From: Eledone cirrhosa
Taxonomy: Eukaryota
Reading direction: 5' to 3'
Assembly: GCA_964016885.1 (NCBI GenBank)
Contig: OZ024743.1
Coordinates: 181,164,001 to 181,228,000, forward strand
DNA: 64,000 bases
In this document: piece by piece, positions 14,528 to 64,000 of the stretch
Layout: each line of letters starts with the position of its first letter
Numbering within the stretch: position 1 is the stretch's first letter
Position numbers and translations under genes: made by a program
Notes under the pieces: generated by a model
What the model was told of the DNA's origin: nothing
Databases searched by the model: none
The model's input: the letters and a program-made list of their open reading frames with translations, nothing else

Positions 14528-15210
14528 CAGAAATCCCTGGCCTGGCAGTGGTACCGAGGAGTTTTGCCGGTTCAGGATAAACTCTACAGGCATGGAAGTG
14601 CCGTGAGCCGGGCCTGTCCGAGATGCGCGCAGACGACGAAACCGTCCTGCACGCACTCGTCCAATGTCCGAGCATCGCTGACTTGTGGGTTTATGTCGAA
14701 CACCTGCTGTCGCGTGTAGAACGGATCCGGCTATCAGCTGAGTCCATCGTGGGGATTGCTCCGCCGCCTTCCTTTAGCCGGGAAGGGCAGGCAGTTTTTA
14801 TCTGCCTGGTGGCCATGGTAAAAGAGGTCGTATGCTGGACGCGTCTGAAAGGGTTGAAGACGGGTACTTTCCTCTTCAGTGACGCCCTCATTAACTTTAT
14901 CAGGTTTCACCTGAAAAGGAAAATCAGGGTGGAGAGGGAAGTGCTGCCTGTAGAATTGTAGGAGGAAAATTGGAAGAGAGCGCTTGCCCTAGCGGTCAGT
15001 GTAACCGTGGCTTTTTTTGTGGGCTTTCTCCACGAGTGTCCTTCGGAAGTCCCCCCCCCCCCCCTATTGGGGAATTTTTCCTTGTTTCTTTTTTTGTTAC
15101 ATTCTCTATTTTTGTTTTTTTACAAAAAGAAATGCCCATTTGTACCGTCCTGTGATGTCCGGTGCTGTCCTTAATGTTATACTTTGTATCAACCCTTGTG
15201 GTTAATAAAG
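14528..15210 (+). mobile_element. Tx1A 3' fragment (zinc-finger end of ORF2 plus 3'UTR), degenerate
   Basis: QKSLAWQ.YRG.LPV.DKLYRHG..CPRC; aligns to 53898-54638 with an internal deletion near 14946. Confidence 0.9.
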
Positions 15211-15287
15211 TACCAGTAATGTACTCGGTAATTGCTGGCCTTGTGCCAAAAGTAGAAATAATAATAATTATTATTATTATTATTATT
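15204..15287 (+). mobile_element. ATT-tailed SINE 3' end plus (ATT)n
   Basis: AATAAAGTACCAGTAATG..GGTAATTGCTGGCCTTGTGCCAAAAGTAGAAA matches 63592-63647. Confidence 0.85.
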
Positions 15288-18200
15288 GTTTTTTGAGTCT
15301 CAGTCATTGATGTTATTTAACTGGAAAGTTTGTTGAAATGAATATCAAGCCACTACCTGCAGCCTCAGATATTCAGGACGTATCGGAGGGTTCTTGCTGT
15401 TCCCAGCAAGCATGCCATTTGAAGTGTTCCAAAAAGCGGGGCTGGATTAATCTTCTTTAACCATCCTTGGAAACCCGTTGAGATAGTCCCCAGTGCGCCT
15501 ATGACAATCGAGACGACCTTGACTTCATGGCAGTTCCAAATCCTTTTTACCTCCCACTTTAAGTCCTGGTATCGGTTAATTTTCTCCCTCTCCTTTTCTT
15601 GCACTCTCGTGTCAAATGGGCAGGCTACATCTACAATCAGGCACGATCTTTTTTCCTTGTCCAAAACCACCAGGTCAGGCCTATTGTGTTCTAATTTCTT
15701 GTCCGTCTGTATCCTAAAATCCCATAGCACCTTCACCTGATCGTTTTCTATCACCGACTCTGGCTTATGCTCATACCACTTCTCAGAATGTGGTAAATTG
15801 TTTACTTTCCATAGGTGCCAGTGGATCACCCTGCCCATCACATCATGTCTCCAGCCCTTATAGTGAGTCTGGGCTAGGTGTTTACACTCGGATACAATGT
15901 GAGCCACAGTCTCCTCTCTCTCTCTCCACAGATCCTGCACAGTGGGCTAGCCTCCTCCTTGTAAATATGGTGTTTCAACCACTTCGTTTTGAGGGCCTGC
16001 TCCTGCGCAGCCATTAACATTCCTTCTGTAGCCTTTTTAAGGTCTCCTCTTTTCAACCAGTTCCATGTCTGTGGATCTCTAAATTCAGTTTTCCCAAAGA
16101 AGGTGCTATGAAGGGATTTTTCCTGAAGGCTGATCTTTCTCCTTGATGTTATTTCCTCCTTGGACATCCCCTGGTCTATTGTCCCCTCCTTCAGTACAGT
16201 TCTGAGCATTGGCTCCTTACTATCAGTCACGTATTTGTGTAGGTTGTTTTTCTCCATCCGAACACAGTCCTCTATGCTGATAAGACCTCTTCCAGCTTCA
16301 GATGTCCTTAAGCAGAGTCTATCGACATCACTCCTCTTGTGGAGCATGTTGTAGATAATCAATAGCTTCCTAGTCTTCCTATCCATTTCTTTTTGTTCAG
16401 CAACATTCCATCTCAGAATTCCCGCACTGTACCTAATAATAGACACAGCTCGGGAATTTACTGCACTTATGGCATTCCTACTGTTCAGATGTGACTTTAA
16501 TACGCTCCTTGCTCTCCGAATGTATTCAGTTCTTATCAATTCCTTCATTTTTTTGTTCTTGGTGTCATCAGCCTCCAGAACACCCAAATACTTGTATCCT
16601 TCTTCAGAGTCAATTTCCTTTATCATCTCACCTGTTGGTACCTGGATTCCGTTACTTCTGCTCAATTTACCCCTCTTCATCACAATGACTTCACACTTAC
16701 TAATACCAAATTGCATACATATATCATTGCTGAAAATACGGACAGTGTCAACAAGCACATCCAACTCCTTCTCACTCTTCCCGAAGAGCTTAAGATCGTC
16801 CATGAAGAGGAGATGATTGATGGTAAGCCCTCCCTTTCCCAACCTGTATCCTGCTCTCACTTTTCGCAGTACACTGGTCAGGGGCATCAGGGCAAGGACA
16901 AACAACAGAGGGGACAGACTATCTCCCTGGAAGATACCTCTCTTGATCTTCACGCTTCCCAAGGATTCTCCAGTTGATGTTAACTCTGTTTACCAGGACT
17001 TCATACTTTTGCCCAACAACTGTCTGATGTTATCTGCCACCTTGAAGATCTCCAGGCTTTTGGTGATCCAAGAATGAGGCACCATGTCAAATGCCTTTTT
17101 GTAGTCTATCCATCCCATGGCAAGACCAGTGTGTCTCCTCTTGCAATTCCTCATTACCATCTTATCAATAAGTAACTGGTCCTTTGTACCACGGGACTTC
17201 TTTCGTCATCCTTTCTGTTCGTCCGATAACAAGTTGTTTGCGTGGAGGTGATGGTAGATTTCCTCAGACATAATACTTGTCAACAGTTTCCACATTACGG
17301 ACAGACATGTGATAGGTCTATAGTTGGTAACATCATTACCCTTGATTCGGTCTTTCATTATCAGAACTGTGGTACCTTTTTTCAACCACTCTGGTACCTC
17401 ACCTGACATCAAGCAGTCATTGAACATGGTTGTCAGTTTCGGGTGGAGGGATGTTATATTTTTAATCCAATACCCCTGCACACCATCTGGTCCTGGTGAT
17501 TTCCAGTTGGTTAGTTTTTTGGCCAGTCCCTTAAGAGTTTCAACTGTGATACTCAAATCAGTTTGTTGGTGTGCCTGTTCACTAATCTCCTTCTGTACTG
17601 TCTCAATCCACACTGCCTGGTCATTATGTTTAACATCCTGCTCCCATATTCCTCTCCAGAATGTTTTAGTTTGTTCCGCCTCCGGGATCAAGTCGTTGCC
17701 TCTTTCTTTCCCTTCAAGCTGTCCAAACAGCATCTTCTGGTTGTTGTCGAACATGCGGTTCTGTCTATACTGACTGACTCTGCTCTCATATCGCCTAATC
17801 TTTGCACTCTATGCTACAATGCGTTGCTTCAGTTCCTCTATGATAATATTTAGCTTTTTCCTCCTAGTTTTGTACTTTATTTCCAGTATATTTTTAGTGT
17901 CTATGTTTTTTAGTGTCCCATTCAGTAGGGACTCAAGCTTTCCAATGTCATTTCTCATTTCCCTGATTTGACCACTCAGTCGTTTCTTCCACCAAGGCTC
18001 TGATCTTTCTTGTCTGTTATTTCCTCTCGCTTTTATGCCAAGTAATTTCCTCACCGCATTTGCTGTTGCCTTGAGGATATTGTTGCACTGGTGAAGGTTC
18101 CTCGCTTCAAGGTATGGGATGACTTTGTTTACCTTAGCTTTTGTTTCTTTTAACTTTTTCCTGTCTACAAATCTTAAGTTCATAGGTTTCCCACTATCAT

Positions 18201-63521: not shown

Positions 63522-63650
63522 GGTCCCTTTACGGTCTGAGTTCAAATCCCGCCGAGGTTTACTTTGCCTTTCATCCTTACGGGGTCGATAAAATAAAGTA
63601 CCAGTAATGCACTGGGTAATTGCTGGCCTTGTGCCTAAAGTAGAAACAAT
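63522..63650 (+). mobile_element. 5'-truncated ATT-tailed SINE inserted in (ATT)n
   Basis: GAGTTCAAATCC B-box, shared body, tail GGCCTTGTGCCTAAAGTAGAAAC then (ATT)n to 63690. Confidence 0.88.
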
Positions 63651-63690
63651 TATTATTATTATTATTATTATTATTATTATTATTATTATT

Positions 63691-64000
63691 GTTCTTTGAG
63701 TCTCAGTCATTGATGTTAGTTAACTGGAAAGTTTGTTGAAATGAATATCAACCCACTACCTGCAGCCTCAGATATTCAGGACGTATCGGAGGGTTGTTGC
63801 TGTTCCCAGCAAGCATGCCTTTTGAAGCGTTCCAAAAATCATGGCGGAGGCAATTTTCTTTAACCATCTCTGGAAACTTTTTGAGATAGTCCCTAGTGCG
63901 CCTATGACAATCGGGACCACTTTGACTTCATGGCAGTTCCAAATCGTTTTTACCTCCCACTTTAAGTCCTGGTATCGGTTAACTTTCTCCCTCTCCTTCT
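63691..64000 (-). mobile_element. R4/Dong element 3' end (subfamily A-like; continues beyond the window; stop codon 63768-63770)
   Basis: TGAGTCTCAGTCATTGATG 3'UTR and LRYVLNI-stop. Confidence 0.9.

Follow-up and report, generated by a model that had tools for sequence, protein, structure and literature searches.

Organization of the locus

The window analysed here is a stretch of 64,000 nucleotides on contig OZ024743.1 of Eledone cirrhosa (assembly of 3.0 Gb), in which the reported subregion from 14528 to 64000 is rich in retrotransposons separated by tracts of the trinucleotide repeat ATT. Self-comparison, Pfam searches and a library made of the window's own element copies revealed four families of long interspersed nuclear elements (LINEs), termed R, D2, T and Tp, which are accompanied by pieces of a short interspersed nuclear element (SINE) (Table 1). 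Thirteen of the 15 plus-strand ATT-type tracts of at least three units in the window fall within the subregion. The families R and D2, which carry a motif of the restriction-like endonuclease (RLE), lie in (TAA)n as read on their sense strand, and T, which encodes an apurinic/apyrimidinic endonuclease (APE), lies in the same microsatellite with the opposite polarity. This rule is real and genome-wide. It is probable that the two clades prime from different strands of one repeat, that each insertion likely adds repeat and that mixed arrays grow in this way.

The initial annotation had described the subregion as a single array. Comparison with the library instead separates a left cluster (14528-24005; 9.5 kb), a Tp stretch, a duplicate (40326-43173) and a main array (44104-75103), and positions 24005-40326 lie outside any ATT array. 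The main array spans about 31 kb and ends 11 kb beyond the window; from left to right, its eight elements are R, T, R, R, SINE, R, D2 and T. The two head-to-head and two tail-to-tail tracts named previously were confirmed, and both SINE pieces are indeed on the plus strand. The Tx1 copies were also said to be all on the plus strand, which is true for the three T pieces but not for the two copies of the sister family Tp. Not all neighbours are joined by (ATT)n: the T fragment at 14528 has no 5' tract and is joined to the SINE by the 7-bp microhomology AATAAAG (15204-15210). The seven RLE pieces all lie on the minus strand, as had been noted; however, they belong to two families and cannot be counted as seven independent insertions. 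The segments 40326-43173 and 43573-46395 are 98.3% identical in their element part and identical in about 150 bp of unique flank, and since the R piece at 40922-43173 shares this flank with the R copy at 44133 and has no tract at its 5' break, it is a duplicate rather than an independent insertion. The breakpoints of this tandem duplication (40326-43180 and 43573-46400) lie in (CAA)n-type tracts; the assembly may show a true duplication here or one that is a haplotype artefact.

Table 1. Elements and repeat tracts in and beside the window (ORF, open reading frame; UTR, untranslated region; RT, reverse transcriptase; aa, amino acids)
Position	Strand	Feature
13861-13872		12-bp ATT tract in a copy of dispersed repeat X; empty-site reference
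14528-15210	+	T 3' fragment with internal deletion, without 5' tract
15204-15256	+	SINE 3' piece, joined to T via AATAAAG
15257-15287		(AAT)4 then (ATT)7 tract, SINE tail to R tail (tail-to-tail)
15288-19877	-	R copy with broken ORF and a truncated, divergent 5' UTR
19878-19901		(TTA)8 tract between R and D2
19902-21618	-	D2 copy, 5'-truncated
21619-21681		(ATT)21 tract, D2 and T head-to-head
21682-24005	+	T 5' part with 5' UTR and ORF1 frame (682 aa); cut by inverted-repeat element
25950-31785	-	Tp copy with broken ORF2; sense-strand target (CTAT)n
31786-31836		(ATAG)n tract between two Tp copies
31837-37662	-	Full-length Tp; open ORF1 (637 aa) and ORF2 (1150 aa; APE-RT-zinc finger)
37663-37810		(ATAG)37 tract at Tp 5' end
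40326-43180	-	Local duplicate of ~43573-46400, including R piece 40922-43173
44104-44132		Left tract of main array
44133-48676	-	Full-length R, ORF frameshifted
48677-48737		(ATT)20 tract, R and T head-to-head
48738-54643	+	Full-length T; 1152-aa ORF2 (APE-RT-zinc finger) open at 50942-54400
54644-54683		(ATT)13 tract, T and R tail-to-tail
54684-58904	-	R copy of another subfamily (~91.5% to neighbours), ORF broken
58905-58936		Tract between two parallel R copies
58937-63472	-	Near full-length R; open 1141-aa frame 59011-62436 (RT, CCHC, RLE motif)
63473-63521		ATT tract, R head to SINE
63522-63648	+	5'-truncated SINE within tract
63649-63690		(ATT)14 tract, SINE tail to R tail
63691-64000	-	5'-truncated R, running to 64098
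64120-69055	-	Full D2, beyond window
69169-75073	+	Full T, beyond window

Opposite polarity of the two clades across the genome

The genome was searched with element ends only, and the flanks played no part in the selection. In each search, the best 40 of 309-1704 candidates were scored and 30 loci were cut out; ten more 5' places each for T and R were added later. After 26 overlapping or paralogous loci and 8 window neighbours had been dropped and four adjoining stretches merged into one, 273 records were pooled. Lack of an orientation bias relative to the repeat strand had been named beforehand as a refuting outcome; a bias was found for both clades, in opposite directions. With a tract of at least 9 bp required at the element end, the 273 de-duplicated records contain 238 R/D2 ends in (TAA)n sense and 2 in (ATT)n sense, and 123 T ends in (ATT)n sense and none in (TAA)n sense. 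Both R/D2 exceptions come from a single locus (L205), where one is a spurious 45-bp match and the other a short AAT tail followed by ATT. A further 75 ends or alignment breaks of R/D2 and 18 of T have no tract.

The repeat is present on both sides of the elements. Outside the window, all 39 full-length T copies start after (ATT)n (18-78 bp, median 51 bp), and all 39 full-length R copies start after (AAT)n (21-114 bp, median 57 bp, GAA units allowed). These 5' tracts of the predicted polarity mean that the repeat is the target of insertion, and the possibility that it is only a tail was rejected. At the 3' side, all 29 T copies are followed directly by ATT, in 28 cases by a tract of at least 18 bp, and 26 of the 29 R copies carry at least 9 bp of AAT- or AAC-type repeat; of the other three, one carries such repeat behind a run of GAA, another has 6 bp of it and the third is rearranged. 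Among R copies that were picked by their 3' end, 10 of 18 breaks within 1.5 kb show an AAT tract, and the remaining 8 join other Dong-type sequence. The form of the 5' junction differs between the families: the phase is the same in 38 of 39 T copies, and a CT variant is common to 19 of 28 Tp copies, which suggests that the repeat is carried on the RNA; the 39 R copies show 14 forms, among them runs of GAA and a 5' end present twice, and this suggests slippage.

Some loci show additional structures. A 5'-inverted R piece was found at L303, and a switch within the tract from (AAT)n to (ATT)n is seen where a SINE or Tx1-like tail lies beside an R tail (15257-15287, L128 and L255). At least three further recurring element ends adjoin the same tracts (L049/L060/L102/L287/L293; L043/L110/L115/L308; L051/L056); these ends are outside the element library, and the guild of tract-associated elements has more members.

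The Dong/R4-type families R and D2

R (1141 aa) and D2 (1216 aa) consist of a single ORF with an RT domain followed by a CCHC motif and the PD..D..K motif of the restriction-like endonuclease, and they share only 35% protein identity. RVT_1 was the only Pfam match in these ORFs. The closest solved structures of R are R2 proteins; unlike in R2, however, the pattern of a C2H2 zinc finger (a pattern search only) had no match in the first 450 aa of R or D2. The Dong/R4 clade is reported to have a diverged N-terminal SANT/Myb-like domain (PMC7998251). As judged by domain order, motifs and the (TAA)n sense target, R and D2 are Dong/R4-type elements, and no named Dong/R4 element is present among the 120 listed of 209 homologs.

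Dong targets (TAA)n in insects, molluscs and cnidarians according to the published account (PMC7998251), and the initial annotation had rightly applied this rule here. Like R and D2, Dong is described as a single-ORF element of the order RT-CCHC-RLE whose two ends both lie in (TAA)n in sense orientation. Nothing in E. cirrhosa differs from it in kind; what is different is that two divergent families coexist and that the gain of repeat can be shown against an empty site. Among molluscs, R4-Dong has been reported to be almost confined to cephalopods (PMC10294476). A ribozyme similar to that of the hepatitis delta virus (HDV) was described at the 5' end of Dong (PMC3774820). Rfam gave no ribozyme match at the 5' ends of R or T; however, diverged HDV-like ribozymes can escape such scans. 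Many full-length R copies (L292, L294, L300-L309) contain a tandem repeat of about 325 bp in the 5' UTR with two to three units, which is absent from the copies in the window.

The Tx1-type families T and Tp

T and Tp possess a separate ORF1 and an ORF2 with the Pfam order APE-RT-zinc finger; they are 69% identical in protein sequence and 62% in the endonuclease domain. The best solved match of T ORF2 is L1 ORF2p (E = 2e-52). Two of the 11 T homologs are named, the better one being the 'Transposon TX1 149 kDa protein' with 32% identity. A CCHC-type knuckle was recognised by eye in ORF1, full in Tp and degenerate in the T copy that was read, with no Pfam match. T and Tp thus belong to the L1 group and are termed Tx1-type here, a putative placement (Tx1 rather than L1) that follows the named homolog. 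T-similar sequence is also present in two other organisms in a contig comparison, in which the flanks were unusable.

Both families carry AATAAA 6-7 bases ahead of the repeat; in the T copy at 48738-54643, whose ORF1 is frameshifted, the 3' end reads AATAAA-GAAAAC. Their microsatellites are strictly different. Tp 5' ends follow a CTAT-type repeat in 28 of 28 copies outside the window, ATT comes directly after 68 of 71 T-like 3' ends and CTAT after none of them, and Tp-like 3' ends are followed by ATT in 0 of 19. Tp often forms tandem chains of its own in (CTAT)n, and one copy in the window has both ORFs open.

Several microsatellite-targeting Tx1 elements with T-rich units have been described, namely Kibi in (TC)n, Koshi in (TTC)n and crocodilian elements in (TTCC)n/(TTTC)n (PMC4494074). 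Like T and Tp, these are reported to have an L1-group ORF2 with APE and RT, a CCHC-type ORF1 and strict T-rich microsatellite flanks. In contrast, (ATT)n and (CTAT)n are absent from the text of PMC4494074 available to us, and T shares its target with Dong-type elements on the other strand.

Origin of the opposite polarity

An (ATT)n-flanked T thus meets (TAA)n-flanked R and D2 in one repeat. In target-primed reverse transcription, an element in (TAA)n sense primes from the TTA strand, and one that lies in (ATT)n uses the AAT strand as primer. By this mechanism, reverse transcription would start from the TTA strand in the Dong-type families and from the AAT strand in T. The endonuclease of each clade probably picks the strand, aided by pairing of the repeat-ending RNA with the primer. 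The opposite polarity would then most likely arise from two inherited clade rules that meet in one repeat, because the Dong rule, the T-rich targets of other Tx1 elements and the endonuclease swap in TRAS/SART all point in this direction.

TRAS and SART are both R1-clade APE elements. In the telomeric (TTAGG)n repeats of Bombyx, they are reported to form a system in which, as here, two LINE families use one short repeat in opposite directions (PMC7265360). The swap of the endonuclease between SART1 and TRAS1 moved the target specificity; the endonuclease thus sets the target and annealing of the RNA helps priming (PMC7265360). TRAS and SART are telomeric, whereas in E. cirrhosa the shared repeat is an interstitial trinucleotide that is used by an RLE and an APE clade and has many thousands of sites. 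The second close precedent is formed by Keno (Tx1, APE) and Utopia (RLE), in which APE and RLE clades were likewise found on one target, the U2 small nuclear RNA genes (PMC4640811). However, these elements are described as having identical 3' flanks and the same orientation, and their target is a low-copy gene, which they do not amplify.

It is also possible, and this is the more tentative explanation, that polarity is determined mainly by RNA-DNA pairing: nicks would be made in AT-rich repeats on either strand, only a nick that pairs with the repeat-ending RNA would be extended, and the orientation would be inherited via read-through tails. The position of AATAAA just ahead of the repeat fits this proposal, since the RNA of T and Tp would end within the downstream tract, and SART1 RNA was reported to anneal to its target (PMC7265360). 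The SINE lies mostly outside tracts and still shows ATT polarity where it does meet them (59 of 62 ends, before de-duplication). Pairing does not readily account for a T copy (L274) whose 3' junction has just one ATT ahead of (CTT)n, nor for the fact that R and D2, despite being only distantly alike, have the same polarity as each other and as published Dong. Moreover, no flipped lineage exists among the 123 T ends, and it was the exchange of the endonuclease that shifted specificity in TRAS/SART (PMC7265360). Selection of the strand by the clade's endonuclease is hence preferred, with pairing as a probable contributor.

Formation of mixed arrays

The frequency of arrays was estimated from a background sample of 112 evenly spaced 10-kb stretches (1.12 Mb) of six large contigs. 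In this sample, R, D2 or T are touched by 25 of 87 tracts of at least 12 bp, 23 of 45 of at least 18 bp and 11 of 14 of at least 45 bp. Stretches with at least five such junctions account for 2 of 112 (95% interval 0.2-6.3%), which implies hundreds to thousands of arrays in the genome. A special status of the window locus is not supported; given that similar arrays are common, nothing marks it as selected. A recognised LINE neighbour is present at the 5' side of 27 of 39 full-length T and 21 of 39 full-length R copies. These rates are close to the background share of long tracts, so that no special attraction between the families is needed, and such an attraction was rejected. Dong-type neighbours are found at the 5' side of T in 22 of 39 and at the 3' side in 9 of 29 cases, a borderline difference (p = 0.05) that is not relied on. 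As about half of the long tracts already flank these LINEs, simple preferential attachment would be sufficient for arrays to form. Tandem dimers of transposable elements have been attributed to insertion-site preference (10.1101/158386), and as here, a shared preference makes neighbours and arrays; the arrays of E. cirrhosa differ in that families are mixed, polarity is fixed and the target itself lengthens.

An unlikely alternative is that template jumping between RNAs, or else local duplication, produces same-family head-to-tail runs in one step rather than by serial insertion. In its favour are the duplicate at 40326-43173 in the window, the repeated units in L297 and four paralogous loci on contig C18, and another R lies directly upstream of 11 of 39 full-length R copies. 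A single event, however, cannot yield the antiparallel R-T junctions (22 of 39 T 5' ends), and neighbours often belong to another family or subfamily with 91-94% identity. The loci on C18 (L136-L139) are four near-identical two-element junctions within 1.8 Mb and represent a segmental repeat that carries an array.

The SINE was considered as a further tract-specific element, and this was rejected: 53 of 59 SINE tails are short ATT tracts of up to 9 bp, and the SINE is often found outside tracts between ordinary target duplications. Rather than being specialised on tracts, it serves as a seed and as a passenger. Its short tails, as well as small tracts in other repeats, would likely seed new arrays. 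The 3' end of the SINE (63620-63648) resembles the 3' ends of T (54620-54643) and Tp, with CC-TGTG..AA..AGAAA before the repeat, a hint that it may be mobilised by a Tx1 family.

Excess of repeat at filled sites

The dispersed repeat X allows empty and filled sites to be compared, since a G and a tract fixed at 12 bp follow (TA)n at its start. X was found in the window (13837-13900) and at 19 places in other loci; it begins directly after (TA)n and may itself be a (TA)n-associated element. At the 19 places, the tract is 12 bp long in 14, 15 bp in one, a shorter variant in one and long in three. All three long tracts adjoin an element (SINE, R or D2), and the tract reaches at most 15 bp at the 16 X places that lack a neighbouring element. 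A genome-wide pattern search for R 3' ends within 15-45 bases of X yielded 34 sites, and the reversed control yielded 0. In 18 of the 34 sites, the G and the entire 12-bp tract are kept downstream, and about 1-8 extra AAT-type units (counted by eye) precede them at the place that (TA)n occupies in the empty site. For T, four 5' ends were identified within 8-68 bases of X; they have 35, 53, 53 and 68 bases compared to 12 in the empty site, none being shorter, and at one of these sites, the intact tract is followed by about 50 more bases of repeat. At L309, a full R lies in X, with AAT repeat of about 80-100 bp on its 5' side beside (TA)n, and an 18-kb array of seven elements elsewhere terminates in X.

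Filled sites thus carry more repeat than empty ones, in agreement with the proposal of the initial annotation that the arrays are self-renewing. The RNA tail would supply new units at the 3' junction; those at the 5' junction may derive from RNA-borne repeat (T, Tp) or from slippage and template jumps (R), and one tract would thereby become two long tracts per insertion.

It has to be considered whether insertions add no repeat at all, either because the longest existing tracts are chosen or because of later slippage, so that arrays would be passive pile-ups. Long free tracts of up to 63 bp do exist in the 1.12 Mb sampled, and the 5' tracts of truncated copies are shorter than those of full-length copies (medians of 36 and 54 bp for R/D2, n = 76 and 40, p 0.0007; 15 and 51.5 bp for T, n = 9 and 46, p 0.0015). 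Neither the 18 R sites with an intact empty tract plus extra units, nor the T site with its additional 50 bases, nor the short tracts at the 16 element-free X places are expected under this explanation, and it appears improbable.

Other features of the window

A copy of T is interrupted exactly where an element of about 255 bp with inverted ends of about 35 bp is located (24004-24258). Short direct and inverted duplications (39544-39728 and 39977-40202) surround a (TA)n-rich stretch to the left of the duplicated R piece. An AT-rich minisatellite of 2.3 kb with periods of 30, 43 and 90 bp occupies positions 7902-10187, and Rfam gave a weak tRNA-like match at 11181-11240.

Implications for microsatellites and retrotransposons

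Several observations weigh against polarity-locked insertion with a gain of repeat. Because each search takes only the best 40 of its candidates, the sets lean to young copies of one subfamily. 5'-truncated T copies are often tract-free, as seen for 3 of 5 breaks in the 3'-end set and 16 of 25 in the pooled records, many of which are internal deletions. The sample of T insertions in X comprises only 4 sites, and longer filled tracts could result partly from the choice of rare pre-expanded tracts or from later slippage. The background covers 6 of 1796 contigs, with three loci giving 14 of the 25 LINE-touching tracts, and the Dong and Tx1 labels are based on domains and homologs.

It was speculated that the locus might be a host-maintained source of double-stranded or Piwi-interacting RNA, which is very unlikely: tail-to-tail junctions would give antisense RNA upon read-through, but T and R are unrelated in sequence, antisense RNA would need such read-through, and similar arrays are common (2 of 112 samples). 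The polarity rule also means that copies of the same family are parallel, and the arrays therefore contain no same-family hairpins.

In octopus, an annotation of repeats reported hotspots together with active Dong-R4 and L1-Tx1 elements, and its main text does not contain the word 'target' (PMC13282606); a second study lists Dong-R4 and L1-Tx1, with targets undescribed in the accessible text (PMC8967140). No description of Tx1 elements in (ATT)n or (CTAT)n, of mixed Dong/Tx1 arrays or of evidence from empty and filled sites was found in the accessible literature, and repeat databases or supplements may hold such families.

Taken further, the arrays may be the product of cross-clade niche construction, a view that we regard as evenly balanced. 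RLE and APE clades would write the microsatellite at both junctions, most long (AAT)n tracts would be by-products of their insertion and each clade would build landing sites for the other. The genome would then hold thousands of arrays that are locked in polarity and lack inverted repeats within a family, and a change of the unit by one letter (TAT to CTAT) would have taken a sister Tx1 family into a niche of its own. With close endonucleases, different strict microsatellites and open ORFs, T and Tp represent a natural target-switch pair, which is suited to studying how the target specificity of LINEs changes and how the enzyme and the RNA tail contribute to orientation. The comparison of empty and filled sites makes retrotransposon-driven growth of microsatellites directly measurable. 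Insertion of this kind would provide a concrete cause for hotspots of transposable elements and for long AAT microsatellites in a genome that is rich in both.

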